64,000 nucleotides of DNA from a virus: positions 1 through 64,000 of IMG/VR virus record IMGVR_UViG_3300045988_102159, one strand, 5' to 3'. Position numbers and translations under genes: made by a program. This document shows, piece after piece, positions 3,662 to 58,674 of this stretch (positions are counted from its first letter, which is position 1; each line of letters starts with the position of its first letter). Under the pieces are notes generated by a model. That model was not told where the DNA came from. It did no database searches and was given only the letters and a program-made list of their open reading frames with translations.

Positions 3662-3664
3662 ATT

Positions 3665-4110: not shown

Positions 4111-4435
4111 TTACACTATTGTTAGCTTGCATTGTCATGAATGCGATAATGATTCATGTCCATTGTGCCGCATAGGTGAGTATGTTCCAGAAGAATCTAG
4201 ACAAGGATGCACTAGAAAATTAGACGATGATACATATGCGGAATATGAACATATAAATAATGAGATTCTACCCTTTCTCTCTCTTGGTATGTATCAAAAT
4301 GAGATTGAAAGGGTAGATGAATTTTTAAATTATGTCTATAAAAGATGTCCTATAGGTACATTTTTAGATGAAAAAGGTAAATCTGTCGGCATTAAAAAGA
4401 AAATAATTGACAAATGCAACTCTGAAATGATATAA
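4103..4435 (+). CDS. hypothetical Cys-rich protein
   Basis: 110-aa ORF overlapping the previous stop (ATGGATGA). N-terminal CHECDNDSCPLC suggests a zinc-binding motif. Confidence 0.5.
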   Translation: MDDYTIVSLHCHECDNDSCPLCRIGEYVPEESRQGCTRKLDDDTYAEYEHINNEILPFLSLGMYQNEIERVDEFLNYVYKRCPIGTFLDEKGKSVGIKKKIIDKCNSEMI

Positions 4436-4462
4436 TATAGTGGAACGAAGAAAGGAAACTAT

Positions 4463-5248: not shown

Positions 5249-5256
5249 AATTATAC

Positions 5257-5286
5257 TTGACAAGTAATATAAACAGATGTTATAAT
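5257..5286 (+). promoter_or_regulatory. sigma70-like promoter
   Basis: TTGACA 5257-5262, 18-nt spacer, TATAAT 5281-5286. Confidence 0.55.
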
Positions 5287-5324
5287 ATAAGAAAGTTTTC
5301 CTTCCAAGAGAAAGTGATAATTAT

Positions 5325-6755
5325 ATGTCTAAGTTTAATGAAAAGATTAAGCCAGAGCGCGCTATGTCATACGAGGGCGGCGATAATTACAAGAAGGATG
5401 TTCTTGAAGATTGGATGAACTTCCTTTTCTCTAGCAAGATGGACGATGGTTTCTATGAGAATGCCGCTACGCAGCAGACTCGTTTCATCGAGCTTACCAA
5501 TCTTGTAATTGATAAGTATGGTGCTGAGTTTGCCGGAAAGTGCGCTATGTTTGCGCGAAATCAACTAGGTATGCGTAGTGTTTCACATCTTGTTGCGGCA
5601 ATGCTGAATGGTCAGAGCTTTGAGCGCAAGCGCGATTTCTACAAGGCTTTTTGTCATCGTCCTGATGACATGTCTGAGATTTTCGCTGCTGTTGACATGC
5701 TTGGCGGCAAGCGTTCTCATGCTATGGTTCGTGGATTTGCAGACTATATGTCTGGTCTTTCTGAGTATAATCTTATGAAGTATCAGATGAAGGGCAAGCG
5801 CTATAACATGTATGACCTTATCAATATCATTCATCCTAAGAGTGATATTGTTGATGATTACATGAATGGTAAGCTAGAAGCGGCTGATACTTGGGAAGTC
5901 AATATCTCCACTGGCAAGGATAGCTGGAAGAACATGGTTGAGGGTAATCGTCTCGGTTATCTTGCTCTTATCCGCAATTTGAATAACATTCTTTCAGATA
6001 ATGTTGATGATGAATGGATTAAGCGCAATCTTGTAGACCAGCTTATCAATGAAGTTTCTATCAAGAAGTCTCTTGTATTTCCTTATCAGATTTATACCGC
6101 TTATCGTAATCTGAAGATTCAGAACTTTGCTGTCATTACGGCGCTTGATACTGCTTTCCGTATTGCCTGCGGCAACATGCCTAAGCTGGAAGGTAATTCC
6201 GTTATCATGCTTGATGTCTCTGGTTCGATGGAAGACCGATACGGAAATAAGTCTAATCTTACCATTAAGGAAGTAGGCGCTTGCTATGCTGCTGCTCTAT
6301 ACATCAATGGTAACTGCGATTTTGTAAAGTTCGGCAACGATGCAAAGTCTGCAACTTTTAAGAAGGCTTGCGGACCGTTCCAAGTCATTCGTGAAATGTG
6401 TGAGAACGATAATTGCGGTTATGGAACTGATATTGCTCCTGCTTTCGGTATTATCAGTGACAAAAAGTACGACCGCATCTTCGTTATCTCTGACATGCAG
6501 GTGATGGCAAGGCAGTACACTTATTGGGGATACAGCACTGACGGTATGCGTAACTATAATAATTACTGCGCCGCACATGGCCGCACGATTCTTTATAGTT
6601 TCGACCTCGGCAACTATTCTAGTCAGATTGCTAATCCTAATAATTCTGACGTTCACCTAATGACAGCTCTGAATGATAACGTTTTCAAGATGCTTGAGTA
6701 TGTAGAAAATGGTGGTAATCTGTACGACTACATCAACGATAACTACCATTTCTAA
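5325..6755 (+). CDS. TROVE/Ro60-like protein with C-terminal vWA domain
   Basis: 476 aa. N-terminal SYEGGDNYKKDVLEDWMNFLF...FYE resembles the TROVE start. MIDAS motif MLDVSGSM and later ISDMQ match a vWA domain. Size and order fit bacterial Rsr. Confidence 0.6.
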   Translation: MSKFNEKIKPERAMSYEGGDNYKKDVLEDWMNFLFSSKMDDGFYENAATQQTRFIELTNLVIDKYGAEFAGKCAMFARNQLGMRSVSHLVAAMLNGQSFERKRDFYKAFCHRPDDMSEIFAAVDMLGGKRSHAMVRGFADYMSGLSEYNLMKYQMKGKRYNMYDLINIIHPKSDIVDDYMNGKLEAADTWEVNISTGKDSWKNMVEGNRLGYLALIRNLNNILSDNVDDEWIKRNLVDQLINEVSIKKSLVFPYQIYTAYRNLKIQNFAVITALDTAFRIACGNMPKLEGNSVIMLDVSGSMEDRYGNKSNLTIKEVGACYAAALYINGNCDFVKFGNDAKSATFKKACGPFQVIREMCENDNCGYGTDIAPAFGIISDKKYDRIFVISDMQVMARQYTYWGYSTDGMRNYNNYCAAHGRTILYSFDLGNYSSQIANPNNSDVHLMTALNDNVFKMLEYVENGGNLYDYINDNYHF

Positions 6756-8224: not shown

Positions 8225-9697
8225 ATGGCTAAGAATGATTATACTAAAGAATCTATTCAATCGTTAACACCAAGAGAACATGTAAGAAAACGTCCATCTA
8301 TGTATTGTGGCGATACTTCAACTCCAAATCAGCTTATGATGGAGCTGTTTAGTAATGCTCTTGACGAACATAACATTGGTCATGGTGATATTATTGATGT
8401 ATCAATTGAAAAAAGCGGTTTGTGCCGTATTGAAGATTTTGCTCAAGGATTTCTTGTAGATGAAGTGCGAGAAGATGGTAAAACTGTTTTTCAAGCTGCA
8501 TTCGATACTATGAATACATCTGGCAAATATACAGATGATGGAGTATATGAAGGTTCAAGTTTGGGCCTTAACGGAATTGGTACAAAATTAGTAACATATC
8601 TATCTAAGAATGTAATGGCAGAAACAGTTCGTGAAGGTAAATGGGAATGTAATAGTTTTTCAGATGGTGTATGTTATAGTCATCAAAGTGGAAACGCTAA
8701 AGAAACTGCTCATACTGGTACGACTGTTACTTATCTTCCAGACGAACAATTTTTTGATACAGATAAAACATCGGTTTCATTTTTCAAAAAGTTTTTCAAT
8801 GATATTACCTGTATTTGTCCAACTTTAACAGTATTTTTAAATGGTGAAAAGATTAGCCATAACAGTATTGAAGATATGTTAGATGAAAAACGCGGTAAAG
8901 ACATTGAAATTGTTGGTAATCATTTTGTTATGAATACTGATAAAATCAATCTAGCTATGACTTTTACATCCGGCAGTCAAACAAAGATTATTCCATATGT
9001 CAACTATGGTATTACATCATCTGGACCGCATATTACGGGAATTAAATCAACTCTCACTCGTGTATTTAATAACTGGGCAAAAGAAAATAATCTTTTAACT
9101 GCTAAAGATAAAAATCTTGATGGTGCTGCAATCCAAGAAGGCATTGTATTGGTATGCAATATCAATAGCAAGGGTGTTAAATATAATGCGCAGGTAAAAG
9201 ACGATATTATTGATATGGATACTTCTTTTACTACTGCTCTTGGTCAGCAACTAGAAGTATGGCTAGATAGCAATCCAGAAGACGCAAAGGCTATTCTTGA
9301 AAAGGCTATCCTTGCGCGAAAAGCAGCAGAAGCAGCTAAACGTGCGCGTGCAGCAGTTAAAAATAATAAGAAACGTGGCAGTAACTTTTTGAAAATGCCA
9401 ACAAGTCTATCCGATTGTTGGTCAAAAGACCGTTCTATTTGCGAACTATATTTAACAGAAGGTCGAAGTGCATCTTCAAACATGGTTGCTGGTAGAGATT
9501 CTAAGTTCCAAGCTGTTTATGGAGTTCGAGGAAAAATGCTTTCTGTGTTAAAGGCAAAACAAGAAAGTATTATAAAGAATCAAGAAATCAATAATTTGAT
9601 TCAAGCTCTTGGTTTAGAGTTTAATCCTAAAACTGCAAAGTGCATTTATGATAAATCTAAATTAAGGTATGATAAAATTATTACTGCTACTGATGCT
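8225..9697 (+). CDS. gyrB: type IIA topoisomerase subunit B (GyrB/ParE-like), exon 1
   Basis: GHKL motifs ELFSNALDEH and GLNGIGTKL; Toprim LTEGRSA. The frame hits TAA two codons after ...ITATDA. The exon ends in U at 9697. Confidence 0.85.
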
Positions 9698-9751
9698 AAA
9701 TAAAATTGGCTGTGTAATATTTTTCTATTAATCAATAGGGTGCTTATTTTC

Positions 9752-12706: not shown

Positions 12707-14088
12707 AGAATTAACTAATAGATTATATTTTTTATGGGCATATCTCTATTATTTTGTATATCTATTTTTTATATTATATAGCGATAAATAATATAAGAAA
12801 GGATATAAATATGAAAGCAGTAAAAGTATCAACCTATGAAGCAACTAAGTTTTATATGGAAGAGAATGAAAAAGGTTTGTCAAAATCAAAAGTAGCAGAT
12901 ATGTTTAAAATAGATAGGCATAGTTTTTGTAAATTAACTTGGAAAGATAAGTATAAAGAATTAGTATTTCCAAAAGAAGACAATGGATATTGCTATTATT
13001 TTGAACCAAAAGAATGGGAAGCAATTCAAGAATATATAAATAATCCTAATATTACTAAAAAAGAAATTAGAGATAAATATAATATATCTCAAAATGGAGT
13101 TTTTAGTCATTGGCTAGAGGTTCTTGGATACGAGGATACAGTTAGATATAAATACAATTTTAAAAGAGATATTTTTAGAGAAGAACCAACTCCAGAAATG
13201 GCATATTGGCTTGGTTTCTTATTAGCAGATGGTTGTATTATTGAAAATAAAATCAAAGGGAATTCAAAAGATTATATTTCATATAATGTTACTGTTCGTC
13301 TTGGAGATAAAGACAAAGAACACGTATATAAATTTGCTAAGTTTTTACAATATCCAGAAGAAAAATTAAATGAAGTTATTAAACCTTGCTATGGCGGTGC
13401 TTATGACAGGAATAATCTTTGTTGGGTTATTGATGTTTGCAGCACTGATTTATGTAAAGACTTACAAAAATATAATATTACTCCAAGAAAAAGCCTAAAA
13501 GAAAAGCCATTTATTTTTAATGATAGAGAGCTTGAATTAAATTATATTAGAGGTATTATTGACGGCGATGGATGGATTAGAAAACCCACTACAAGAGATT
13601 TAAGAATGGGTGTAGTTGGTTCAGAAGAAGTTTGTAATTATATTAGCAGTGTTTTAAAAGAGTATTTTCCTCATAAAATGGAACATGCAAAACCAAAAGC
13701 CCATAGCGAAAGTATTAGTTCAGATTTATATTATTGGCAAACGACTTGCCGAGAAGGAACTAAAAACGTATTAGAATTATTATATCCAGAAAATTGTCCT
13801 ATTTATTTAGATAGAAAATATGATTTAGCGCGTGCCGTGCTAAAACTGCTGAATTAAGCGGGAAAGCTAAGTTTAATATTAAATTAATATTGAATATGCT
13901 AATCCGAACCGAAGGCTAGTAATAAAATATTAGTCAGGGGCAGAGCATAGAAGATGAAACTGTAATTACAGAATATAATTCTTCCAAGAGTCAGCGGCTA
14001 CTTAATAATTTAAGTAGAAAAGATATGCCGAACTTATAGGAAACTATAAGAAATAGAGGATAAAAAGCCTTTATGATAACAAAAATTG
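12707..14088 (+). mobile_element. group I intron in topoisomerase A gene, with LAGLIDADG ORF in the P1 loop
   Basis: 1382 nt. Guide gccgtg (13834-13839, inside the ORF 3' end) pairs with exon end cacggt. The 3' 230 nt are homologous to the dnaB intron. Ends in G14088. Confidence 0.75.
12811..13857 (+). CDS. LAGLIDADG homing endonuclease (double-motif)
   Basis: ATG 12811 follows RBS aaggat. Two dodecapeptide motifs: LGFLLADGCI and IRGIIDGDGWI. Confidence 0.85.
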   Translation: MKAVKVSTYEATKFYMEENEKGLSKSKVADMFKIDRHSFCKLTWKDKYKELVFPKEDNGYCYYFEPKEWEAIQEYINNPNITKKEIRDKYNISQNGVFSHWLEVLGYEDTVRYKYNFKRDIFREEPTPEMAYWLGFLLADGCIIENKIKGNSKDYISYNVTVRLGDKDKEHVYKFAKFLQYPEEKLNEVIKPCYGGAYDRNNLCWVIDVCSTDLCKDLQKYNITPRKSLKEKPFIFNDRELELNYIRGIIDGDGWIRKPTTRDLRMGVVGSEEVCNYISSVLKEYFPHKMEHAKPKAHSESISSDLYYWQTTCREGTKNVLELLYPENCPIYLDRKYDLARAVLKLLN

Positions 14089-15945
14089 ACGCAAGCAATC
14101 TACGAAACCTTTGCTCGTATGTCTCAGCCTTTTACCAACAATGTACCAGAGGTTGATTTTCATGGAGCGAATGGCAATGTAATCTTGGGTGGAGACGCAA
14201 TCGCCGCAGACCGTTATACAGAAGCACGTCTTTCTAAAATTACAGAAGAGTTCATGCTTAATGGTATTGAAAAAAATACAGTTCCAATGGTTCTGAACTT
14301 TAGCGAAGACGAATATATGCCAGTAGTATTACCGTCATATTTTCCTAGACTTCTTGTTAATGGTGCTCAGGGCATCGGCGTTTCGATTGCCAATAATTGG
14401 TTGCCGCATAATCTTAAAGAAACAATTAACTTAATTGGAAAATATGTTAAAACAGGAAAATTTGAAGCAGATGAATACTATCCTGATTTTCCTACTGGTT
14501 GTACGATTGTTAATAAAGATGAGTTATCTTCAATCAATGAAACCGGAAAAGGTAAAGTAATTGTAGAAGCTACATATAATATTGATGGTAATGAAATTAC
14601 TTTTACTGAAATGCCATATCAAGTATACATAGAACCTTTAATTGCAAAAATTAAAGAACTAATTGAATCAGAAGATTTAATTGGTATTAAAGATGTATAT
14701 AACAAGAGTGACAAAAATGGCATAGCTTTAGTTGTTGAATGTCAAAAAGGATATACGGCAGAAAATGTATTACAGCAGCTATTCCAAGCAACTCCTTTAA
14801 GGTCGCAATATAATGTTAATCAGAATGGAATTATCAGTAAAACGCCAGTGCTTTTAAATTTACAACAAACTGTAGACGAATATCTGTTCCATTGTTTTGA
14901 ATGTTTGAAACGTGAAACTGAATATGATAAGAATCTTGCTGCACAAAGGAAAGAGATTCTAGAAGGATTAAAGTTTGCTTTAACAAACATTGATAAAATT
15001 ATTGAAATTATTCGTGGCTCAAATGATAAAACAAGTGCGGCAAATGAACTTAAAAAAGAATTTGAATTTACAGATAGACAAACTAAATCAATTCTTTCAA
15101 TGCCACTAATGAAATTAACTAAGTTGGATACTCAATCAATTAAAAAAGAGCTAATAGAAAAGAATGAAATCATTGCAAAGTGTGATTTAATCTTAAATGA
15201 TAAAAAGGAACTTGATAAAGTATTCTTAGCAAAGCTCAAAGATATGGGCAGGAAATATAGCACTCCACGCCGCACTAAAGTAGTCCAAAAAGAAATTACA
15301 AAGACGAAAAAGGCAAGGTCTTCTGCGCCAAAAGAGAATAGGAATTTTGTTATTGCCTTTAATCCTCTTGGCTATCTACAGAAAGTCTCACCTTCTAAGT
15401 ACAAGAGTGACGGTAGCCTTGCATTTACTGTATCTGAAGATAGAAAAGTAGCTTTGTTCTCGAATAAAGGACGATTCTTTAGGATTGCTCTTTCAGATAT
15501 TAAAGAATGCGGACCAAAGGATAAGGGAACAGCTATCGGTGCAATTATCAATCTTGATAATGACGAAAAAATTATTACAATTCACAACGATGTATTCGTA
15601 GATAAGCCTTATATGTTCTTTGTTACAGAGGACGGCAAGGTTAAGAAGTGTGAAGGTAAACAATTCGCTGGCGGCACACGTAACGTTAAAGGTTCTGTGG
15701 CCTTTAAGACCGATAGCAAAATTGTCAGCATCCAAGAGACAAATGGATGTGTTGTAACATTAACGTCAACCAAGAGACAGATTAGTTTCATGGCTGATAG
15801 TGTGCGGGCAAGCAGTATTCGCTCTGGCGGCATGTGCGGCATTAAGCTAGACGATGATGATAAGATTGTATCCATGACAATCACTGAGCCGCAGAATTTC
15901 ACAGGTAAAATTGCAAACAAGGGTGGACGAGGGATTCTTCTTTAA
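14089..15945 (+). CDS. gyrA: type IIA topoisomerase subunit A, exon 2
   Basis: Begins TQAIYETFARMSQPF, gap-free against GyrA DSAVYDTIVRMAQPF but with T where Asp is canonical. Catalytic-Tyr context AADRYTEARL; C-terminal beta-rich domain. Confidence 0.8.
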   Translation, partial: TQAIYETFARMSQPFTNNVPEVDFHGANGNVILGGDAIAADRYTEARLSKITEEFMLNGIEKNTVPMVLNFSEDEYMPVVLPSYFPRLLVNGAQGIGVSIANNWLPHNLKETINLIGKYVKTGKFEADEYYPDFPTGCTIVNKDELSSINETGKGKVIVEATYNIDGNEITFTEMPYQVYIEPLIAKIKELIESEDLIGIKDVYNKSDKNGIALVVECQKGYTAENVLQQLFQATPLRSQYNVNQNGIISKTPVLLNLQQTVDEYLFHCFECLKRETEYDKNLAAQRKEILEGLKFALTNIDKIIEIIRGSNDKTSAANELKKEFEFTDRQTKSILSMPLMKLTKLDTQSIKKELIEKNEIIAKCDLILNDKKELDKVFLAKLKDMGRKYSTPRRTKVVQKEITKTKKARSSAPKENRNFVIAFNPLGYLQKVSPSKYKSDGSLAFTVSEDRKVALFSNKGRFFRIALSDIKECGPKDKGTAIGAIINLDNDEKIITIHNDVFVDKPYMFFVTEDGKVKKCEGKQFAGGTRNVKGSVAFKTDSKIVSIQETNGCVVTLTSTKRQISFMADSVRASSIRSGGMCGIKLDDDDKIVSMTITEPQNFTGKIANKGGRGILL

Positions 15946-27002: not shown

Positions 27003-27229
27003 CAGAAGATGATAAATTAAAGATTCTCAGTTATCACCGCAAACATCAGCGCTGTTGATATTGTAAATATTATTTTTATCCATATGTGCCGCATGAGCTA
27101 AAATTTACTAGCACCGTTCCTCCTGAATGTGCTATTAAAGATAAACGGATTTATCCTTATATCTTAGGTTTTAAAACGTTAGCAGGATGTATGTACAAAG
27201 AGTTTGGAGTTGATGAAAATAGATTATAA
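26999..27229 (+). pseudogene. small ORF interrupted by an in-frame TGA inside a C-x-x-C
   Basis: ATG 26999 (ATGA overlap), 19 codons, TGA 27056-27058, then 56 more open codons to TAA 27227. The context is RC-TGA-YC. Confidence 0.3.
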
Positions 27230-28964
27230 ATTATATAAGCCAACATTGGATAACTTGACACCTCAACAACAAATTTTATATAATAGAGATATTCCAGTAG
27301 AAGAACAAAGTAACTGGCTTAATGCCTATTGGAATGATGTAAATGATTTTCATCTATTAAAGAACATTAAAGACGCAGCTGTAATGATTATTAATCATTG
27401 TATGTGGACAAGCTCAAAGATTACTATTCTCCAAGATGCAGACGCAGATGGATTGACTTCTAGCTCCATTATAGCCAACTATATTCATCGCATTTGTAGC
27501 AAGGAACCGACCATCCTAATCCATGAAGGAAAAGCTCACGGACTTGCGGATATTGATTTAGATAAGATTATAGAGACTACCAATCTTCTTATTCTTCCAG
27601 ATTCATCTAGTAATGATTACGAACAACATAAGTATCTTCATGACAATGGCGTAGATATTGTAATCGCGGACCACCACTATTGTGAAAAATATTCTGAGGA
27701 CGCTATTGTAGTAAATAATCAATTAGACGATTATCCTAATAAAAACTTTTGCGGAGCAGGTGTTACATGGCAACTATGCCGTCAGATGGATGAACTTCTT
27801 CACTTTGATTATGCAAATGATTTAGTTGACTTGTGCGCTCTTGGTCTTTGCGGAGATATGATGGATTACCATGAGAAAGAAGTGAGAGCGCTTGTCAATA
27901 TCGGTTACGCTAATGTCAAGAACAAGTTCTTTAAAGCATTCATAGACAAACAAGAGTTTTCTTTAAATAAGATGAATGGTCTTAACTATCTTAGTTCTAG
28001 CTTTTATGTGGTTCCTTATCTGAATAGCTGCTGTCGAACTGGTGAAATGGTAGAGAAACGTCTTCTTATTAACGCTCTATTGGATTACAAATGTGATACA
28101 ATGATTCCATCATCCAAGAGAGGTGAAAAAGGTAAAGAAGTTCCTCTTTGGCAAGAAGCTATTACTGTTATTGAACGAGTGAAACGTAGACAGACTAAGC
28201 TACAAGACGAAGCTATGGAGTTTTTTGAATATCAGATTCAGTCTAAAAAGCTAACAGATAATGCTATCATTACTTGTGTATGCGGCAAAGATGATGCTGA
28301 ACCAGGCATTTTAGGTTTGGTGGCGAATAAAATCCAAGCCAAATACCAGCATCCTACATTGGTCTTGCAGGAAGTTGAAGAGGAAGACGGAGTACATCTA
28401 AAAGGGTCTGCTCGTAATTACTCTTATTGTCCTGTTGAAGATATGCGTAGTCTTTGTGAAGATACTGGCATTGTCGATTATGCTTCTGGGCATGGGTCTG
28501 CATTTGGCTTGTCTTTGCCTTTAGAGAACTTTTATGAGTTCTTAGACAAGACTAATGAGCAATACAAAGGTATTGATTTTAAGCCTGTCTATCTCGTGGA
28601 TTATATTTGGAATTATAACAATATTAATCCTAAATATGTTCTTGATATTGCGGAGCTAAATATTTATGGTCAGGGTATTCCAGAATCTAAAGTTGTAGTA
28701 GAAGATATTGCATTGGACAATGTTAATGTCCAGCTTCTAGGTGAAGCAAAAGGACATCCTACTATTAAAATTTCTCTACCTTCTGGTGTAGATATTATGA
28801 AATTCAAATCTTCTAGGGAAGAATTTGAAGAATGGACAAGTGGAGAAAAGAAACTAACCATTGTAGGAACGTGTTCCAAGAACGAATGGATGGGAAACGT
28901 TACGCCGCAAATTCTAATTGATGATTTTGAATTAGAGGATTATGAAGAGGAATGGGTATTTTAA
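27213..28964 (+). CDS. recJ: DHH-family RecJ-like single-strand exonuclease
   Basis: DHH motifs LQDADADGLTS, IVIADHH and GAGVTWQL. ATG 27213 follows RBS ggag. Confidence 0.7.
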   Translation: MKIDYKLYKPTLDNLTPQQQILYNRDIPVEEQSNWLNAYWNDVNDFHLLKNIKDAAVMIINHCMWTSSKITILQDADADGLTSSSIIANYIHRICSKEPTILIHEGKAHGLADIDLDKIIETTNLLILPDSSSNDYEQHKYLHDNGVDIVIADHHYCEKYSEDAIVVNNQLDDYPNKNFCGAGVTWQLCRQMDELLHFDYANDLVDLCALGLCGDMMDYHEKEVRALVNIGYANVKNKFFKAFIDKQEFSLNKMNGLNYLSSSFYVVPYLNSCCRTGEMVEKRLLINALLDYKCDTMIPSSKRGEKGKEVPLWQEAITVIERVKRRQTKLQDEAMEFFEYQIQSKKLTDNAIITCVCGKDDAEPGILGLVANKIQAKYQHPTLVLQEVEEEDGVHLKGSARNYSYCPVEDMRSLCEDTGIVDYASGHGSAFGLSLPLENFYEFLDKTNEQYKGIDFKPVYLVDYIWNYNNINPKYVLDIAELNIYGQGIPESKVVVEDIALDNVNVQLLGEAKGHPTIKISLPSGVDIMKFKSSREEFEEWTSGEKKLTIVGTCSKNEWMGNVTPQILIDDFELEDYEEEWVF

Positions 28965-29750: not shown

Positions 29751-32255
29751 GTGCTTGACAAATATCCCGGCAGCCTTCACAACCATACAGATTTCTCAAA
29801 TCTTAGACTTAAAGATTCAATTAACACAGTAGACCGTTTAATGGATTATGCTTTGGAACTTGGTCAAGATGTATTAGCCTTTACAGAGCATGAATCAGTA
29901 GCTAATGCAGTCAAGATTCAAGAAGCATATGAAAAGCGCAAACAGGATAATCCAAATTTCAAAGTGATTCTTGGCAATGAGATATACCTGGTCCGCAATG
30001 GGCTTAATAAAGATAATTTTAATCCAGAAGAAGATAGGTATTTTCACTTCATTCTATTGGCTAAAAACACAGAAGGCCACAAGCAAATTCGTGAGATTTC
30101 AACGCGAGCTTGGATGCGTTCTTATATGGCTCGTGGTATGCGGCGAGTGCCAACATATTATCAAGACTTAATTGATATTATCGGTAAAAATAAAGGTAAC
30201 GTTATTGCTTCAACCGCGTGCCTCGGAGGGCAATTACCAGCTTATCTTCTCAAATATAAGCAAACAAACGATAAAGCATATATTAAACAAGCTATCAAAT
30301 GGCTTAATGGAATGGTTAAACTTTTCGGCAAGGGTAATTTCTTTCTAGAAATGCAACCTTCTAATAATGAAGAGCAAATCTATGTTAATAAGTTGATTAA
30401 AGAACTATCTCATAAATTAGATATTCCATATATTATCACTTGTGATGCTCATTATTTAAAGAAAGATGAAGCATTCATCCATGAGACATACTTGAAATCT
30501 CAAAATGGTGAGCGTGAAGTCTCTGAGTTCTATGCAACTACCTATCTCATGGGAACAGAAGAACTTGAAGAATTCTTTGAATATTTTACAAAAGAAGATA
30601 TCTGTGCCGCATATGAAAATATTGAATATATTAAGAATCAATGCGAAGATTATAATCTTAAAAAGCCTTTAAAGATTCCTCAACTACCTTGGAAATATAG
30701 CTATATCACAGACGAGCAAGTAAAATCTTTTCAAGATAAAATTCCTAACCTAAAATATCTTACTGAATCTGATTTTGAAGGTGACAAACTTCTTGGCAGA
30801 CTAATTATTCAAGGCATCCAAGAGAAAGAAGATTTACAGAATCAAGATGCTTATGATGAAATCAACATTGAACTAGAGTCTGTCTATCAAAGTTCTCTTG
30901 TAAATAAAACGCATTGGTCTTCATATTTTCTTAACTTGCAGAAAATCATTGATACCATTTGGGAAGCCGGTTCTATTGTTGGCTGTTCAAGAGGAAGTGG
31001 CGGTGGCTTCCTTATCTTATATGTTCTGGGCATTATCCAGATTAACTGTCTAAGAGAGACTACAAAGACATTCCACTGGAGGTTCCTTAATCCCGCACGT
31101 GTCTCTGTCTTAGATGTAGATATTGATGTATCTGGTCTGCGCCGCAAGCAAATCTTAGACAAGTTTAGAGAAGTCTATGGAGAAGATAGAGTCTGTAATG
31201 TTCTTACTCTTGGTACAGAAAGTACGAAATCAGCCATTCTAAGTGCGGCAAGAGGTCTCGGAATTGATAATGATGTGGCGCAATACATTGCTTCTCTAGT
31301 CCCTTCTGACCGTGGCTTAATTCGTTCTTTGCATCAATGCTACTATGGCGATAGCAAAGAAGGAATGAAACCAGTTATTCCTTTTGTCAATGAAATGAAG
31401 CAGCGTCCAAAACTGTGGGAAGTTGCTTGTCGAATTGAAGGTCTAATTTGTCGCTCTGGAATACACGCGGGAGGACTTGTCTTCGTTGATGAACCATTTA
31501 CGGAGACGGCGGCTCTTATGCGTGCTCCCGATGGGACTATTATTAGTCAATTTGACCTCCACGACTTGGAGAAATTATCGCTCATTAAATACGACTTGCT
31601 TTCGGTCGAGGCGATGGACAAGATTCAGGTCTGCCTTGAACTGTTAGTAAAATACGGTTATCTTAAATGGTCTGGAACCCTGAGAAAAACTTACGAAGAT
31701 GCTATCGGTATCTACAATCTAGAACGAACAGATTCTAAGATGTGGAAAATGGTATGGGAACATAAGATTCAATCTTTATTCCAAATGGAAAAGTCAAGTG
31801 GAATTCAAGGCATCGCGCTAACACATCCTAAATCTGTTGACGATTTAGCCACTCTTAACAGTGTGATTCGACTTATGGCGCAAGAAAAAGGCGCTGAAAC
31901 ACCTCTTGAAAAATATGCAAGATTCAAGAAAGATATTTCTTTATGGTATCAAGAAATGGACTCTTATGGTCTAACAAAAGAAGAACAAAAGATTCTTGAA
32001 CCCGTTCTTAAAATCTCTTATGGTCTGTGCGAGTCTCAAGAGCGCTTTATGATGCTTGTCCAGATTCCAGAGTGTGGCGGCTTTGACCTAAACTTCGCCG
32101 ATCGGTTAAGAAAATCTGTCGCAAAGAAGGACCCGGCTGGATACAAGGCTTGTGAAAAGGAATACTTTGAACGAGTCCAAGAACGCGGCTTGAGTAAAAA
32201 CCTTTGCAATTACGTATGGAACGTATGTGTCGCAACAAGTCGAGGATATGGCTTT
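29751..32255 (+). CDS. dnaE: DNA polymerase III alpha subunit (DnaE-like), exon 1
   Basis: GTG start. PHP domain SLHNHTDFS...AFTEHES. The exon ends ...ATSRGYGF and the frame stops 3 codons later. Confidence 0.8.
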
Positions 32256-32540
32256 AAAACGAATTGAAGCCCTATATAGTGATATATAGTACAAATTGCC
32301 TAACATGCGGGAAACTCCTAAAACTTTATATTACTAAACTAATACAGCAATGTATTAGCGGCAAAGAGTAATGTCTGAGATATAGTAATAAGATATAAAG
32401 ATATGTGGACAATCCGCAGCGAAGTTTCTATTTAAAATAGAAAAACGTTCAGAGACTATAATGGCACATCTTATATAAGATGAAGGTATAGTCCAGACAG
32501 CAACCAGTTTACTGGGCTTATGAAAATTAGTGCTGTAAAG
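32256..32540 (+). mobile_element. ORF-less group I intron in dnaE (285 nt)
   Basis: Guide gaagcc (32266-32271) pairs with exon end ggcttt. Ends in G32540. Shares core blocks with the Sak4-gene intron. Confidence 0.8.
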
Positions 32541-48188: not shown

Positions 48189-48770
48189 TTAAATTTTAAT
48201 CCAAATTTTGCATGTATCGCTAGTAGGTTGTGTGCTAGATATGATTATAATATCGTTCGCTGCTTTGGCATTGAGCTTTGTATTTATTTCACTTTCAGTG
48301 TAATAGCGGTCATCGTGAGTATGACCAGTATCAGACTTACCGTCAAGTGCAGATTTAACAACCTTACTTTGAACTGGATTGGTAGAATTAGCAACAAATG
48401 ATGCATCTACAACGGTCTTGTTTGCGCCAGTAGCAACACTATCAAGTTTAGACTTATCTGCGGCAGACATAAGACCATCTGCACTGGCAGTAGCATTATT
48501 ATATATAGTATTTGAATCTGTAACGTTAACAGAACTACCGTCACTACCTTTGAGAGTAATTGTGCTGCCACTCTTGGTTAAAGTGTAAGTAGTATTTGTA
48601 TTGATATTATCTTTAATCTGAATCAGAGAGGACGAAGAAATACCCATCCACAAAGTGCCGGTATCAGTTGCAACATATAATGCACCATCCAATACTTTGT
48701 TTTCGGCAGTGAGTGCTTTGATATTAGGTTCTTTATCTCTGATAAATTTTACTCTTGCTATCTTGCTCAC
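48189..48770 (-). CDS. tail fibre protein (short)
   Basis: 193 aa. Fibre repeat GHTHDDRYYTESEINTKL. C-terminus CKIWIKI resembles that of the 509-aa fibre. Confidence 0.6.
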   Translation of the reverse strand: MSKIARVKFIRDKEPNIKALTAENKVLDGALYVATDTGTLWMGISSSSLIQIKDNINTNTTYTLTKSGSTITLKGSDGSSVNVTDSNTIYNNATASADGLMSAADKSKLDSVATGANKTVVDASFVANSTNPVQSKVVKSALDGKSDTGHTHDDRYYTESEINTKLNAKAANDIIIISSTQPTSDTCKIWIKI

Positions 48771-53910: not shown

Positions 53911-54435
53911 TTATTCACTCCTTTCATTGCTCTTTTGGCTTACAATAAATTGTGGATTGGAAAGATTGATTCTCGGTAGTTCGCGTATCTCTTCCATTAA
54001 GCCATCAATGAATGAGTTGCCGCCTGCCGCTTTGTAATATAAATATCTGCGCTCCAGAGATTCTAGATTAAGGTCATCAATAGCCTTGATTTCATAGCAA
54101 AAATAGTGATGCTTGTCAATGATATAACTGCGAGAATTTTCCTGCAATCTTTCAAGAGTAAGTTTTTCATGCTCTTGTAGTGTTTTAATATCATTCGATT
54201 GATTGCTAATTTCTTGACTAAGTTTTTTAATATCTGCTTGCAACGAAGCAATACTTTCTATAATCTCAGAGTGCTTTGTATCTTTAAGTGTCTGATAGTT
54301 GAAATATTTTTTTAATTTATCATAAAAATATTCCAATAGCTCACTTAAAAATTTAAAAGCGACAGCTAAAGTCACAACTAGCATAACGATAGCTCCGAAA
54401 GAGTATTGCGACACCAGTTGCGACAAAGCATCCAT
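53911..54435 (-). CDS. membrane-anchored coiled-coil protein
   Basis: The internal ATG at 54435 avoids overlap with tip paralog 5. TM FGAIVMLVVTLAVAF, then coiled coil. Confidence 0.45.
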   Translation of the reverse strand: MDALSQLVSQYSFGAIVMLVVTLAVAFKFLSELLEYFYDKLKKYFNYQTLKDTKHSEIIESIASLQADIKKLSQEISNQSNDIKTLQEHEKLTLERLQENSRSYIIDKHHYFCYEIKAIDDLNLESLERRYLYYKAAGGNSFIDGLMEEIRELPRINLSNPQFIVSQKSNERSE

Positions 54436-54514
54436 TCTCGGCAATATCCCTTCTTCTCTACATAGTCTAATATAATATGAAAATAATTTGCATTTGATTT
54501 TAGGAATTTGCCCA

Positions 54515-54547
54515 TAAAAAAACGAGGGAAACATAAAGTTTCCCTCG
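54515..54547 (-). terminator. intrinsic terminator closing the tip-gene array
   Basis: On the minus strand, cgagggaaac-tttat-gtttccctcg followed by ttttttt. Confidence 0.75.
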
Positions 54548-54553
54548 AATAAA

Positions 54554-55030
54554 TTAAGCTGTACGTCTGTACATATTACAGGTGATGTATGCGGGGCGTG
54601 AATCCCAATATAACTCTTTTGTAACCATAACAGGATGTGATATAGAACCAACAGAACTTGCAATATTAGCATTACAACTATGGTTATATTGAGAATGTAC
54701 CTTTGTATCGTCTGCCAACTTAATAATATTATCAGTATATTTCTTTGAATTAGAAACATTCACAAAATTACATAATGATATATCTATGTCTGCATTCCAA
54801 GTTGGAACGATTGTGCCATACCAAGCACCATATACATACGAAAAGCCGATATTACCAGAAAAGCCACCAGTAGAATTCAGGGCATTGTTTTCACTAGAGG
54901 ATTGTAAAAATTTCCCATCAATCTTTTCCCAAGAGCCACCAACTGAATCTACTGGAGATACATCGCTAAAAGTAATATATACCGAACCAATAGGATAAAC
55001 AATGTCTAGGAGGTTAACAAAATTTGACAT
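54554..55030 (-). CDS. receptor-tip (tail-collar-like) paralog 5
   Basis: 158 aa: MSNFVNLLDIVYPIGSVYITFSDVSPVDSVGGSWEKI ... NMYRRTA. RBS aggagg. Confidence 0.7.
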   Translation of the reverse strand: MSNFVNLLDIVYPIGSVYITFSDVSPVDSVGGSWEKIDGKFLQSSSENNALNSTGGFSGNIGFSYVYGAWYGTIVPTWNADIDISLCNFVNVSNSKKYTDNIIKLADDTKVHSQYNHSCNANIASSVGSISHPVMVTKELYWDSRPAYITCNMYRRTA

Positions 55031-55054
55031 TATGCAACACCTCCTAGCATATAG

Positions 55055-55453
55055 CTAGGCTGTTCGGAAATAGATGTTAAAAGCCCTGTACTTTGGACGA
55101 TTGTCAAACGGCTTATAAGAATATTGCGCATCTTGGTTCTTGCCATCAGCAACGCGTGACACATCAAAACCATAAACACCGTTGCCCGGAGCAAAGAAAC
55201 TAATAGTTTTTGGTAATCCAAACGCGTCGCAAGTGCCGCCTGTAACCCAAACATTTGACGGCAGATTTGCGACAGAAAGTTTACCTTCATTTGTTCCACC
55301 TGTTGCACCGGGCGTTCCATTGCAAATGAAAGTGTCGCTGTCGAGCTTCGTCCATGTTCCACCAATTGAATCTGCTGGTGAGACTGAATTATTTGAGATA
55401 AATACTGACCCAACTGGGTAGACAATATCCAAGAGGTTAACGTAGTTAGACAT
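55055..55453 (-). CDS. receptor-tip (tail-collar-like) paralog 4
   Basis: 132 aa: MSNYVNLLDIVYPVGSVFISNNSVSPADSIGGTWTKL ... NIYFRTA. RBS gaggtgg. Confidence 0.7.
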   Translation of the reverse strand: MSNYVNLLDIVYPVGSVFISNNSVSPADSIGGTWTKLDSDTFICNGTPGATGGTNEGKLSVANLPSNVWVTGGTCDAFGLPKTISFFAPGNGVYGFDVSRVADGKNQDAQYSYKPFDNRPKYRAFNIYFRTA

Positions 55454-55471
55454 ACGCCACCTCGCTTAGAT

Positions 55472-55852
55472 TTAAGCGGTTCGATACCAGATGAAGCAAG
55501 TTGTGTAGGGCGGCAAGTTGTTGTGTGCTGCCCCCCCCCCTGTAAAGTTACCTTGATTGTCATTCGCTGATAAATAATTACTACTGCTATTAGAGCAGGT
55601 CACGCTAGAACCACCAAAAGCTGATGCCCATGTTGATACCCATAATCTATGATGATGATTAGGCATTTCATCAATAGTCAAGGTATGCGTTGCTTCGCCG
55701 CCAGTTTGATTTGCAGTATCAGCACCATAAAGGAATGTCTTAATCTGTGTCCATGTACCACCAATAAAATCAGCAGGTGATGTTGCATCCATGCTTTGAT
55801 AAATTGAGCCTACTGGATATACAATATCCAATAGGTTTACAAAATTACTCAT
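55472..55852 (-). CDS. receptor-tip (tail-collar-like) paralog 3, containing an in-frame G10 tract
   Basis: 126 aa: MSNFVNLLDIVYPVGSIYQS...GGEATHTLTIDEMPNHHH...FTGGGAAHNNLPPY...WYRTA. The GGG codons come from the homopolymer. Confidence 0.7.
   Translation of the reverse strand: MSNFVNLLDIVYPVGSIYQSMDATSPADFIGGTWTQIKTFLYGADTANQTGGEATHTLTIDEMPNHHHRLWVSTWASAFGGSSVTCSNSSSNYLSANDNQGNFTGGGAAHNNLPPYTTCFIWYRTA
55531..55540 (-). repeat. homopolymer C10 (G10 on the coding strand)
   Basis: Counted directly: ten consecutive C, inside paralog 3. Confidence 0.95.
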
Positions 55853-55896
55853 TTATATCCTTTCTAATTTAATAGAAAGAATATTATAAAATCTTC

Positions 55897-56352
55897 TTAG
55901 GCTGTTCTCTTATATACATTTATAGAATAGTGATATGGAATATGTTGCTGTTGGTCTGTTACAAAATTACCATTATCATCAATTCTCCAAGTATCTTTAG
56001 TCCACAAATTCCAACCAGAATCGCCGCCATCTGCTCCGCCATATGACAAGAATTGCCATGCGTTGCCAGTAGCAGCATTAGTGAGCCAAAAACCAATATT
56101 GGCGTATTGCGCCTTAGCACTATGCCAAGCAAAAACCTGGTGTTGATGGTCTGGAATGGCGAGCTTAGAAATCGTATCACTGCCAGAAAAACGCCCAGCT
56201 AAACTGTAAGTATCGCCACTTGCCGCAAGCAAGCAATTTTCAATTTGTTCCCAAGTTCCGCCGATAGAATCAGCAGGAGAAGTGGCATTGGTAGTAATAT
56301 AGATACTTCCAACTGGATAAATAATGTCAAGAAGATTTACAAAATTAGACAT
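55897..56352 (-). CDS. receptor-tip (tail-collar-like) paralog 2
   Basis: 151 aa: MSNFVNLLDIIYPVGSIYITTNATSPADSIGGTWEQI...PDHQHQ...NVYKRTA. Confidence 0.7.
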   Translation of the reverse strand: MSNFVNLLDIIYPVGSIYITTNATSPADSIGGTWEQIENCLLAASGDTYSLAGRFSGSDTISKLAIPDHQHQVFAWHSAKAQYANIGFWLTNAATGNAWQFLSYGGADGGDSGWNLWTKDTWRIDDNGNFVTDQQQHIPYHYSINVYKRTA

Positions 56353-56396
56353 GGCAAACCACCATGCCTAGAACAGCCATTGAAGAAGAAGCTACA

Positions 56397-56444
56397 TTAC
56401 TGTAGCCCCCCCCAATGACTGTGATTAGTCATTAAGTTTTTCAT
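56397..56444 (-). CDS. leader mini-ORF b (15 codons in the present phase)
   Basis: MKNLMTNHSHWGGLQ, RBS aaaggat. Homologous to mini-ORF a around M-x-N-H-(S/T)-x-x-G-G. Confidence 0.4.
   Translation of the reverse strand: MKNLMTNHSHWGGLQ
56406..56413 (-). repeat. homopolymer C8 (G8 on the coding strand)
   Basis: Counted directly: eight consecutive C, inside the mini-ORF upstream of paralog 2. Confidence 0.95.
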
Positions 56445-56487
56445 AATATCCTTTCATTTAGGATATTAGATAAGTTAATGTGAGTAA

Positions 56488-56886
56488 TTATGCGGTTCTA
56501 CGATACATATGAACTGTTATATATGGTGGCATATTATTATGAGCTTGGCTACCGCCCCTAACTGGATTCGCTGTTATATCCGTATTGCCACCGCCGCCTG
56601 AGACGCCGCCTATGCTATAACCTCCTGAATTGAAATTATAAGATACAGACCAGGCCCATACATTGTCTCTAAACTCGTGATGATGCGCAGGAATTTCATT
56701 AATAGTTAGCTTGTGCGTTTCTTCGCCACCAGTAATACCAGTGGTACCAGCAGAGCCATACAAGAAAGTATTTTCTAATAATTCCCATGTGCCGCCAATA
56801 ACATCTGTCGGAGACGTTTCATTGAATGTTATATATACGCTGCCAACTGGATATATGATATCAAGCAGATTTACAAAATTACTCAT
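56488..56886 (-). CDS. receptor-tip (tail-collar-like) paralog 1
   Basis: 132 aa: MSNFVNLLDIIYPVGSVYITFNETSPTDVIGGTWELL...GGEETHKLTINEIPAHHH...AHNNMPPY...MYRRTA. RBS aggagg. Confidence 0.7.
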   Translation of the reverse strand: MSNFVNLLDIIYPVGSVYITFNETSPTDVIGGTWELLENTFLYGSAGTTGITGGEETHKLTINEIPAHHHEFRDNVWAWSVSYNFNSGGYSIGGVSGGGGNTDITANPVRGGSQAHNNMPPYITVHMYRRTA

Positions 56887-56909
56887 ATAACCCTCCTAGG
56901 TCGAGAGCA

Positions 56910-56966
56910 TTAACTAAGAGGAATGCCCCCCCCCAGAAGAGTATGATTCTTCATGGTATCTAACAT
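56910..56966 (-). CDS. leader mini-ORF a (18 codons in the present phase)
   Basis: MLDTMKNHTLLGGGIPLS, RBS aaaggt. Confidence 0.4.
   Translation of the reverse strand: MLDTMKNHTLLGGGIPLS
56926..56934 (-). repeat. homopolymer C9 (G9 on the coding strand)
   Basis: Counted directly: nine consecutive C, inside the mini-ORF upstream of paralog 1. Confidence 0.95.
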
Positions 56967-57100
56967 CTTTAATTACCTTTCTTATATAATGTTAAATAAA
57001 ATTTTAATAATCTATTGGAAAAGCTCCGCAGAAATTAATTCATTAAACTTATTCACATAAAACTCCTTTTCTTTCTTAGAATTATATTCTATATCTATAT

Positions 57101-57135
57101 GAAAAAAGGGCAAAACCCATAATAGGATTTTGCCC
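57101..57135 (-). terminator. intrinsic terminator opening the tip-gene array
   Basis: On the minus strand, a gggcaaaa/ttttgccc stem followed by tttttt, immediately after the 509-aa fibre gene. Confidence 0.7.
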
Positions 57136-57144
57136 AAAACTATA

Positions 57145-58674
57145 TTAGATTTTAACCCATAGTTTAATATGCTCTTCTGTAGGAGTATCAGTGCCAACAT
57201 ATACAGTACCAACATCATCCGCAAGTTTAGAATTAGTAACAGCTTTATCTGCAATTTTAGCAGACGTAACTTTACCGTCACCAATAGTAGTAGTCATTGT
57301 AATAGGATTTACTGTATTAAAACTTGTGGTAGATGTTGTGATATCACCACTTAATGCAACAGTATTATTAAACTTGTTCGCAGATTGAGCATTGGTGGCG
57401 CTAGTCGCATTACCCTCTACATTACCAGTTAGATTGCCGACAAACTTTGTGGCATATACATAGCTCCATTTAGCATTAGAAGCACCAAGATTATAAGAGT
57501 TATCAACGCTTGGTGTCATTGTTCGGCCAATCAGATTACCAGTTAAAGTACCGCCAGATAGCTTTAAATAGCTTGTATCGTGATTGTGGTTAGCAGTTGC
57601 AGCGCCGATATTAGCGCAAGTAAGATTAACGTTACCCTTACGATAACTTGTCTCAGCATCGCCCTTAACACCCATGACCTCGCCAGCGATTTGCCATGTA
57701 CCATCTCCACAAAGGAACTTATTGTGATTTCCAGCCGCAGGAGCCGGGACAAGACCAGCATTTCCAGCAGAAGAAGCAGTAGCACCTTTCATTATATCTG
57801 GTTTAGTGTTATCTACATCAAACGAAACAGCAGAAGACCCATCAAAAGTAATAGCTTGAGTAGTTGTAGTAGTACCTGTACCGCTAATAAGATTTACTGA
57901 TAAACTATGACTAACTTTACCAGCAGTAGTAGCATTAGTAGCATTATCTGCATTGGCAGCATGAGTGGCTTCAAGCGCTGTACCAGCTTTGTACTCTTGG
58001 TATCCTGCATCAGAATTTAGTTTACTATCATCAACGACAATATACATAACACCAGTATCATCTTGGATAACACTATCGCCAGTCTGTACTTGAGTGTTAG
58101 TTAATTGAAAACGTGCAGTTTTATTTGCAACATGGACTAATCGCTCTAATGCACCGTGTGGAATTGTATTTAAAGGTAACACTCCAGTGACACTTGCGGC
58201 ATCAATTGATGGAATTGTAATAGAGATATTTCCAGAACCATCAAAATTAGCACTGCCTGTGCCACCATTATTGCCGCCTTTAACGCTAATTGAGCGTGCG
58301 TTTTTTAATTTTGTAGCAGTATCAGCATTACCAGTAACGTTACCAGTAAGATTTCCAGTGAATCCGCCATTACCAGTAACCCTACCTGCGAAAGTCGTAG
58401 GAGAGGTAACTGATTGCGCGTTAGTAGTTGTCTTATCTAACTTATTATTTGCGTTATCATTAACAGCCTTTACTGCTTTTGGTGTCGCGGCAACAACTCC
58501 TGTAGCTGCACTATCTGTAGCATCTATAGCATCCGAAAGCCAGACTTCACCGCGCTTGTTGTTGGTAGCATCTGGCGCAACGTAAATCGGCCTATATGTT
58601 TTAAGCGTAGGGTCATACACTTTGGCAACAAAATTATTTTTCATTGTAGAATCATTTGGATTACCTTTAGCCAT
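57145..58674 (-). CDS. tail fibre protein (long)
   Basis: 509 aa. NKRGEVWLSDAIDATDSAATGVVAATPKAVKAV and SAGNAGLVPAPAAGNHNKFLCGDGTWQ are typical fibre motifs. Repeated GNLTGNV. Ends KLWVKI. Confidence 0.7.
   Translation of the reverse strand: MAKGNPNDSTMKNNFVAKVYDPTLKTYRPIYVAPDATNNKRGEVWLSDAIDATDSAATGVVAATPKAVKAVNDNANNKLDKTTTNAQSVTSPTTFAGRVTGNGGFTGNLTGNVTGNADTATKLKNARSISVKGGNNGGTGSANFDGSGNISITIPSIDAASVTGVLPLNTIPHGALERLVHVANKTARFQLTNTQVQTGDSVIQDDTGVMYIVVDDSKLNSDAGYQEYKAGTALEATHAANADNATNATTAGKVSHSLSVNLISGTGTTTTTQAITFDGSSAVSFDVDNTKPDIMKGATASSAGNAGLVPAPAAGNHNKFLCGDGTWQIAGEVMGVKGDAETSYRKGNVNLTCANIGAATANHNHDTSYLKLSGGTLTGNLIGRTMTPSVDNSYNLGASNAKWSYVYATKFVGNLTGNVEGNATSATNAQSANKFNNTVALSGDITTSTTSFNTVNPITMTTTIGDGKVTSAKIADKAVTNSKLADDVGTVYVGTDTPTEEHIKLWVKI

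Follow-up and report, generated by a model that had tools for sequence, protein, structure and literature searches.

Hypermutable polyG tracts in receptor-binding genes are known from the Fletchervirus phages of Campylobacter (Sorensen et al. 2021, Cell Rep 35:109214, as cited in bioRxiv 10.1101/2025.10.21.683753 and PMC10579305). Here, we analysed positions 1 to 64,000 of the IMG/VR virus record IMGVR_UViG_3300045988_102159 (this whole 64-kb stretch is hereafter called the window), in which an array of five small minus-strand genes (P1-P5), accompanied by three long G runs, lies directly downstream of a tail fibre gene. We consider it probable that this locus is a polyG contingency (phase-variation) module controlling an array of stand-alone fibre tips. 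The original prediction for the region, made from the letters of the window without database searches, assumed that polyG switching of receptor-binding proteins (RBPs) had been described for Campylobacter phages only. The portions of the literature consulted do name Fletchervirus alone in this respect, although they also list polyG tracts, so far unstudied, in a baseplate gene of PB1-like phages and in the methylase gene of BPP-1 (bioRxiv 10.1101/2025.10.21.683753). Coliphages T2 and T4 carry polyA-type contingency loci, in which homopolymer slippage has been presented as bet-hedging (Gomez, Barrick & Waters, bioRxiv 2025.10.21.683753). Simple repeats are under-represented in coliphage tail-fibre genes (bioRxiv 2025.10.21.683753), whereas the long G/C runs of the window are found exclusively in its fibre-tip module.

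As far as the accounts cited describe the Fletchervirus phages, the locus resembles theirs in having runs of 7-11 G in or next to receptor-binding genes, and, as predicted here from sequence, a frame-dependent ON/OFF arrangement and diversity in the population. Judged against the same accounts, it differs in (i) belonging to an unrelated human-gut phage of ~142 kb with a DnaE-type polymerase, (ii) its targets, which form an array of stand-alone tips of ~130 aa, (iii) the position of two of the three tracts, which lie in upstream leader open reading frames (ORFs), and (iv) tracts that also bound whole cassettes. No Campylobacter phage was present in the top ten organism groups or among the matches listed in a tblastn search with the tip.

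A dedicated genetic device that diversifies the distal, receptor-binding end of the fibre and leaves the proximal part constant would be shared with the invertible tail-fibre segments of Mu and P1 and with diversity-generating retroelements (DGRs; BPP-1 Mtd). Unlike these, the array has five genes on one strand and lacks long inverted or template repeats. An invertible segment, a shufflon and a DGR were rejected as candidates because no inverted repeat longer than 19 nt occurs in the array, whose sole long direct repeat is a 117-nt N-terminal coding region; the array, which was the part screened for such genes, also showed neither a recombinase nor a reverse transcriptase. In T2-type phages, the gene adjoining the fibre gene encodes gp38, a small adhesin that caps the fibre tip and determines the receptor. 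The tips described here are likewise small and separately encoded beside a fibre gene, and probably dock on the fibre, judging from a single-chain homolog (P0117, see below); they differ from gp38 in fold family and in the presence of several alternative caps. Homology links the tips to gp10 of phage T4 (PDB 2fkk, 5iv5; gp10/gp11/gp12 head-domain family), the resemblance extending over the whole domain, from (V)SN.F...YP.G..Y to ..PY.TVY.W.R.A. In T4 this domain ends a 602-aa baseplate protein, whereas here it stands alone, in five diverged copies, without a shaft or an N-terminal anchor. For the leaders, the nearest counterpart is that of Helicobacter pylori tlpB, in which a variable G-repeat is targeted by the C/U-rich small RNA RepG and sets translation (PMC8295292). 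A hypervariable G run in an mRNA leader and a C/U-rich RNA partner are common to both; unlike the trans-acting, graded tlpB/RepG system, the partner here lies in cis, the run is placed inside a leader ORF, and the predicted accessibility is independent of run length.

The ORFs and their alignment agree with the original prediction of five tandem minus-strand paralogs of 126-158 aa with conserved ends and mutually unrelated middle regions. Residues common to P1-P5 are M1 S2 N3 V5 N6 L7 L8 D9 I10 Y12 P13 G15 S16 ... S25 P26 D28 G31 G32 W34 and, at the C-terminus, R-T-A, and the motifs GGE.TH.LT..E.P.HHH and AHNN.PPY, which it had pointed out in P1 and P3, are present. Its view of the genes as old, maintained copies was also borne out: since paralog pairs differ by 6-10 synonymous and only 1-3 non-synonymous codons over the first 17 codons, and their common 117 nt show only 61-75% DNA identity, P1-P5 are considered old paralogs under purifying selection. 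Both of the flanking terminators that it named were found (Table 1); terminator-like sites in the region number 5 against 1.9 expected. A scan of the whole window recovered the runs of 9, 8 and 10 G that it had singled out by eye, and no other G/C run of at least 6. All three lie within 1.4 kb, in or beside tip genes and with G on the coding strand, in a window of 36% G+C for which its composition predicts ~4 G/C runs of at least 6 and 0.03 runs of at least 9. Their placement had to be revised. The prediction had put the tracts in the array without assigning them to genes; G10 alone is located inside a paralog (P3), and G9 and G8 are intergenic, within leader ORFs of 18 and 15 codons upstream of P1 and P2, respectively. 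The proposal of five switchable cassettes was not upheld, with one intragenic tract (P3), two leader tracts (P1 and P2) and none in P4 and P5.

Table 1. Features of the fibre-tip array and of other loci discussed in the text (positions in the window; SD, Shine-Dalgarno sequence; MFE, minimum free energy)
Feature	Positions	Strand	Remarks
Tail fibre gene, 509 aa, directly upstream of the array	57145-58674	-	Pfam Phage_fiber_2 repeat, E 1.5e-8; ends ...VYVGTDTPTEEHIKLWVKI
Terminator between fibre gene and array	57101-57135	-	stem 57135-57108, 11 bp, 6 G-C pairs, T run
Candidate array promoter TTGCCC-16-TAGAAT	57086-57113	-	consensus scan, 9/12 matches; weak; overlaps upstream terminator
Relic leader ORF VNKFNELISAELFQ	57012-57056	-	short, SD-led, G run lost; homolog of relatives' 'VNKFNELTSLGGG...' leader
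P1 leader ORF MLDTMKNHTLLGGGIPLS	56910-56966	-	18 codons, SD AAAGG, holds G9
G9 tract in P1 leader ORF	56926-56934	- (C9 on +)	homopolymer scan
Predicted RNA stem, ACUCUUCUGGG (5' of and into tract) with P1 SD CCUAGGAGGGU	56883-56946	-	MFE -32.1 kcal/mol, z -2.3
P1, stand-alone Gp10_C tip protein, 132 aa	56886-56488	-	PF21939 E 1.8e-19, 71.5 bits
P2 leader ORF MKNLMTNHSHWGGLQ	56397-56444	-	15 codons, SD AGGA, holds G8
G8 tract in P2 leader ORF	56406-56413	- (C8 on +)	homopolymer scan
Predicted 24-bp RNA hairpin, G run paired with CUUCUUCUUC	56373-56422	-	perfect at G10
Predicted hairpin with P2 start codon in 3' arm	56346-56370	-	6/10 pairs vary one-sided, pairing kept
P2, Gp10_C tip protein, 151 aa	56352-55897	-	PF21939 E 7.5e-10, 40.3 bits; without good SD
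P3, Gp10_C tip protein, 126 aa	55852-55472	-	PF21939 E 3.1e-21, 77.2 bits; own SD and intragenic tract
G10 tract in P3	55531-55540	- (C10 on +)	homopolymer scan; Gly-Gly-Gly directly before AHNNLPPY...WYRTA
P4, Gp10_C tip protein, 132 aa	55453-55055	-	PF21939 E 3e-8, 35.1 bits; own SD GAGGTGG; no tract
P5, Gp10_C tip protein, 158 aa	55030-54554	-	PF21939 E 8.9e-8, 33.6 bits; own SD AGGAGGTG; no tract
Terminator closing the array	54515-54547	-	stem 54547-54523, 10 bp, 6 G-C pairs, T7
Second protein with fibre-type C-terminal motif (MGISSSSLIQ...SSTQPTSDTCKIWIKI)	48189-48647 (longer ORF call to 48770)	-	no tract
PolIII-alpha/DnaE-type DNA polymerase	29751-32267	+	37-38% identical to SPbeta YorL and relatives
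RecJ-like exonuclease and both topoisomerase II subunits	27204-28964, 8225-9703, 14086-15945	+	also phage-encoded; ORFs listed with the polymerase

The behaviour of the tracts was followed in a set of 44 related loci, composed of 25 close IMG/VR relatives (L003-L027; fibre 79-97% identical, contigs up to 147 kb) and 19 contigs from one metagenome scan. Runs of at least 6 G are present in 43 of them (24/25 and 19/19, respectively), always downstream of the fibre gene and with G on the coding strand, either in this cassette array or, in L174, ~7 kb beyond it at another site for cassettes. In the relatives, no G run of at least 6 occurs in the baseplate genes that occupy the 6 kb preceding the fibre gene. 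Homologous tracts with conserved flanks differ in length, as the original prediction of contingency-type tracts would have it, from 6 to 11 G (mode 9). Pure runs homologous to the P2-leader tract comprise G8 (five genomes), G9 (five), G10 (seven) and G11 (one), and homologs of the P1-leader tract in the relatives have 7, 8, 9 (four times) and 10 G. Over 13.5 kb, the genomes L009 and L010 share 99.91% identity and are separated by a single indel, G10 versus G11 at a tract.

Intragenic tracts always encode a glycine run ~20 residues before the conserved C-terminus, and do so with GGG, the rarest glycine codon (4.6% of glycine codons in the long ORFs of the window). P3 is in frame at G10, and each of G8, G9, G11 and G12 swaps its last ~20 aa. 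The conserved C-terminus is missing from 16 of the 32 distinct tip alleles that bear a tract, owing to a frameshift exactly at the tract, and in silico all 16 regain it when the run is altered by 1-2 nt; of 100 tip alleles without a tract, no more than 6 are disrupted (Fisher p 1.2e-7, a rough value, as are the other p-values, because tip alleles are phylogenetically related). A C-terminal variant, ...RTT, was counted as intact in this tally. This frameshift pattern is the strongest evidence that the tracts are reversible switches and not a sign of decay. Genes of the P3 type would very probably be turned ON and OFF by frameshifting, and phase variation of the entire module at the DNA level also appears very likely.

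An ORF of 177 codons (55030-55563, minus strand), read in a different frame, spans the entire length of P4 and would be joined to P3 at G9 or G12. Dual coding of P4 was considered for it and rejected as unsupported: shuffling of synonymous codons often kept the frame open (P 0.20, 0.75, 0.006 and 0.23 in four homologs, the first value being that of the window), and composition largely accounts for the open frame.

With respect to protein identity, P1-P5 all score above the gathering cut-off (27 bits) of the Pfam family PF21939 (Gp10_C; baseplate structural protein Gp10, C-terminal domain). The matches cover positions 1-139 (P1 and P3) and 1-138 (P5) of the 139-position profile, and in P2 and P4 mainly its N-terminal half. 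A profile of 43 homologs matches the C-terminal domain of T4 gp10 (2fkk_A, E 9.1e-8) in two stretches spanning both ends of the domain, including the N-terminal VSNIFDTIYPIGTIY and the C-terminal NIQPYITVYRWIRIA, and T4 gp10 (5iv5, 2fl8, 2fkk) was also the best, weak Foldseek match of a P1 model (E 4e-3, template modelling score 0.39). The profile and structure comparisons called for at the outset thus both lead to T4 gp10. The predicted receptor-tip identity stands in that the proteins are paralogs of a fibre-tip/head domain; the tail-collar part of it does not, Gp10_C alone being listed and PF07484 not being reported for any of the five in a Pfam scan with E up to 0.1. The GGE.TH.LT..E.P.H.H motif is common to the related Gp10_C and tail-collar families. 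More than 2,300 homologs of the tip domain were found in metagenomes. In cultured phages, Gp10_C is the C-terminal end of long proteins in fibre or RBP position; in the Streptococcus prophage Javan29, it makes up the C-terminal ~129 aa of a structural protein of 618 aa, which is encoded between a tail endopeptidase and a holin. P1-P5 are therefore bare tips with no shaft, for which homology and gene position suggest a role in receptor binding and host range.

In the relatives, the fibre gene is followed by cassettes of two types: Gp10_C tips and 'fibre-like' proteins of 125-419 aa. The latter all end with ..QPT...CK[LI]WIKI, a motif also found at the very end of the 509-aa fibre (..PTEEHIKLWVKI). 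Since the single-chain homolog P0117 carries the fibre-type motif (VYVGDTEPTDSSVKCWISP) 12 aa upstream of its Gp10_C domain, the fibre end and the tip start were, as the sequences suggest, once contiguous and may now dock non-covalently. The number and order of the cassettes vary widely, from 1 to 6 (mostly 2-6) with tip and fibre types mixed. Several relatives (L003, L011, L018, L006/L026/L168 and L013) have hybrid leaders, whose halves come from different classes and meet exactly at the G run, which indicates that the tracts coincide with the borders of cassettes as well and might be used as joints in recombination. The hybrids are also consistent with cassettes bounded by polyG on both sides.

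These observations raise the question of whether the G runs are mainly recombination joints, a universal microhomology of 9-11 bp for the deletion, duplication or swapping of cassettes, with length variation as a by-product. Both the exact switch of class at the run and the very variable cassette number and order speak for it, and as a principal explanation it is nevertheless rather unlikely: intragenic tracts lie inside ORFs and not at cassette borders and show an ON/OFF frame pattern, and joints would need no SD-led leader ORFs. As an additional role, joining is compatible with switching.

Control by the leader tracts would concern the frame in which they are read. The leaders fall into classes, seven with unrelated sequence plus three in L112 (another lineage, see below), in which a start codon precedes the run by 5-12 codons, and a recognisable SD is present in all classes but one. 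In 8 of the 10 classes, one of the three tract phases ends on or abuts the cassette start, and the other two stop 20-80 nt short of it. The stop/start junctions in the coupled phase are ATGAGTAA, ATGTCTAA, TAATG, TAAATG or a 4-nt gap. In the P1 leader, G8 reads on to TATGAGTAA, overlapping the P1 start, and G9 (the length in the window) or G10 leads to a stop 23-27 nt short; in the P2 leader, G7 or G10 reads on to CATGTCTAA, overlapping the P2 start, and G8 (window) or G9 to a stop 39-44 nt short. An SD is missing in 21 of 32 distinct cassette contexts preceded by a leader and present in 14 of 15 leaderless ones; in the two leader classes that keep it, the SD is predicted to pair with an upstream anti-SD. 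Of 15 curated interrupted ('locked') leader alleles, whose run is no longer pure, 9 have the coupled frame, compared with 11 of 68 pure runs; in the P1 leader, the interrupted alleles (GGTGGGGG) have the frame leading to the P1 start. This contrast fits fixation of the ON state when a cassette is needed, with OFF as the majority state otherwise.

Tip starts behind the leaders are also predicted to be occluded by RNA structure. The P1 SD pairs with CUCUUCU next to the tract, and in partition-function folding its unpaired probability is 0.00-0.05 over G5-G13 (0.00 from G6 up); that of the P2 AUG is 0.00 throughout the same range. The 131-nt region of the P2 leader folds into two hairpins with an MFE of -46 kcal/mol (z -6.9), and 96% of cells are paired in these hairpins across 13 sequences, with one-sided changes only. 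No family of Rfam matched (best E 0.21).

Such structures invite an explanation at the RNA level, in which the length of the leader G run tunes structure, processing or translation gradually, as in tlpB/RepG. The very stable hairpin of the P2 leader between the run and CUUCUUCUUC, with a perfect match at G10, the C/U-rich stretches beside the run in the P1 leader and in the lineage L087, and the precedent itself (PMC8295292) all favour this explanation, which we regard as unlikely all the same. Occlusion of the P1 SD and of the P2 AUG is identical from G6 to G13; accessibility close to zero at every one of these lengths argues against a purely structural rheostat and for the need of an incoming ribosome. 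Gradual tuning also leaves unexplained why a start codon, nearly always with an SD, precedes the run in every unrelated leader class, and why locked alleles show a frame bias, and it is inapplicable to intragenic tracts. A length-dependent RNA rheostat is accordingly not supported, since folding at G5-G13 occluded both sites to the same extent. Phase variation through the spacer of a promoter was rejected: the tracts lie downstream of SD-led starts, the promoter scan placed no tract between a -35 and a -10 element, and shuffled sequences had more promoter-like sites than the region itself.

The model that we prefer for P1 and P2, in which leader frame gates translational coupling to the tip gene, has about an even chance of being right. 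Beside the relatedness of the tip alleles, several observations weigh against it or against switching in general. The finding of 8 coupled classes out of 10 is only modestly unusual in a shuffle test (P = 0.02), short spacers often giving the same result, which lowered our confidence in coupling. Two leader classes, De and L020, reach the cassette start in no frame, and one class is without a significant fold (z -0.87). The hairpins of the P2 leader show no two-sided compensatory changes among 13 sequences, for which the shuffle control was uninformative. Because the anti-SD of P1 lies upstream of the tract, translation of the leader in any frame might open the SD. In near-identical, non-duplicate pairs of genomes, only 1 of 8 tract comparisons differs; consensus tract lengths are therefore not wildly unstable. 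Finally, the AlphaFold2 monomer model of P1 is poor (predicted local distance difference test score 65), to which we attribute the weak Foldseek scores.

The cassette class 'MTAQENN' (L007 8140-8242; homologs in L015, L025 and L013) has a different arrangement: no leader frame reaches the ATG of the cassette, and the G8 frame stops at a TGA overlapping a GTG, which opens a mini-ORF ending with TATGA on the cassette start. Through this mini-ORF, coupling might be relayed in two steps.

Transcriptional slippage can occur on runs of 8-10 identical bases. If RNA polymerase or the ribosome slipped on the G runs, a fixed mixture of frames would arise in each infected cell by programmed recoding, without heritable switching, and out-of-frame consensus alleles would be tolerable. 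Two considerations make this quite improbable: the DNA tract length itself varies between relatives, including the sole indel between L009 and L010, and known bacterial transcriptional slippage occurs mostly on A/T runs. Recoding and switching at the DNA level could coexist. That the tracts are non-adaptive, as sequencing or assembly artefacts or as hot spots that pseudogenise dispensable genes, can scarcely be maintained: Illumina sequencing of polyG is prone to errors, some short contigs have an end within 9-12 nt of a tract and one run is G20, but the same positions recur in independent assemblies (IMG/VR, ENA, Logan and JGI) from many samples and pipelines, the sites are conserved despite 3-21% divergence of the fibre, on one strand only and with the rarest glycine codon, the coding sequence downstream of out-of-frame tracts is intact and restorable in 16 alleles, and the paralogs are under purifying selection.

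In the phase-variation model that we favour, G's would be added or removed by slipped-strand mispairing while the phage-encoded DnaE-type polymerase replicates the DNA; this slippage step is supported by the between-genome comparisons of tracts. In P3, G10 would be the ON state, and lengths other than 3n+1 would replace the conserved last strand (..PPYTTCFIWYRTA) and so inactivate the tip. The ribosome-binding sites of P1 (paired SD) and P2 (paired AUG, no SD) would be occluded, and in one tract phase only would ribosomes cross the occluding structure and terminate on the tip start (ATGAGTAA / ATGTCTAA), resulting in translational coupling. P1 would be coupled at G8 or G11 and P2 at G7 or G10; both are predicted to be low or OFF in the window, because G9 and G8 are uncoupled phases. 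P4 and P5, having their own SD and no tract, would be constitutive. The conserved C-terminal ...PT....K[LI]W[VI]KI motif, with which the fibre ends, is probably where the tips dock non-covalently. Within a population of the phage, a fixed core of tips plus stochastic extras would then be displayed, and the different tip sets would hedge against receptor variation.

More tentatively, and with some doubt, we suggest that G runs in this widespread clade of human-gut phages have three roles at once: an intragenic switch, a frame selector in leaders and a microhomology joint bounding cassettes, by which entire tip and fibre cassettes would move from one genome to another. If this is true, the three roles, together with a plug-and-socket formed by the fibre end (..K[LI]W[VI]KI) and the conserved N-terminus of the tips, would yield receptor-binding repertoires that are combinatorial, heritable and reversible. 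Switching of phage RBPs by polyG has so far been tied to one genus, whose host phase-varies its receptors by polyG as well; the same logic would operate here in an unrelated, abundant and uncultivated clade of the human gut. If this is confirmed, contingency loci would take their place beside DGRs and invertible segments as a strategy of phages in general, which would have a bearing on the persistence of gut phages against variable hosts and would explain assembly breaks and apparent 'pseudogenes' in the fibre modules of viromes. Our literature search returned no polyG-bounded multi-cassette tip array, no control of this kind by leader ORFs, and no such locus in gut phages. To our knowledge, frame selection in SD-led leader ORFs that gates translational coupling is a mode of phase variation not described for phages; if real, it adds a compact, tunable expression switch to the repertoire.

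The window comes from a 142.6-kb human-gut metagenome scaffold of an uncultivated phage, whose clade has genomes of ~140 kb. About 45 genomes or contigs of this clade were seen, from many samples, and two further lineages (L112 and L087) also carry tracts. The phage polymerase is at most 38% identical to polymerases of cultured phages, and its fidelity on G runs could set the switching rate. Neither megablast with the array nor tblastn with the fibre gave anything useful against 50,697 phage records. The phage is absent from 185,579 GTDB genomes, the best partial match being in Blautia difficilis (53% over 78 aa); strong SD use and the distribution of homologs point to a host among the Bacillota. 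The 64-kb window contains no tRNA. Look-ups of the exact P2 and P4 proteins, which sought the same strain with other tract lengths, returned only the same sample.

Among the minor features of the region, the relic leader between the upstream terminator and the P1 leader suggests that a cassette was once deleted or replaced there. Downstream of the array, a long minus-strand ORF (53911-54759) overlaps the 3' end of P5, with an alternative ATG at 54534 inside the terminator hairpin; in relatives, the corresponding protein has 174 aa, starts with MDALSQLV..., which is probably the true start, and contains a transmembrane segment and a coiled coil. A second cassette site is best seen in L174 (10100-13376), where it holds two more fibre-like cassettes, each led by polyG (G8 and G10). 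The phage family thus has two cassette sites, of which the second is minimal and tract-free in the window (Table 1).

Some relatives show unusual runs or contig ends. In L005 (7558-7577), a G20 run directly follows the fibre stop codon; this is far above the 6-11 G found elsewhere, and may be an expansion or an assembly artefact. Two ENA contigs (L193 and L194; 575 and 565 nt), which carry one tip gene each, break off at a distance of 9-12 nt from a polyG tract, and a Logan contig (the L002 end) terminates 30 nt past the P3 tract. Anecdotally, such ends fit assembly breaks at heterogeneous or poorly sequenced tracts.

In the two other lineages, runs of 7-10 G likewise occur at Gp10_C tip genes. 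The 34-kb contig of L087 (IMGVR_UViG_3300001598_000132) has G9 at 4848 and 5994, ~30-40 nt before tip starts, with C/U-rich stretches following the runs and no leader ORF. The fibre of L112 (IMGVR_UViG_3300045988_160375) is 56% identical, and the region 3500-6400 contains seven tracts, leaders and several out-of-frame tips.

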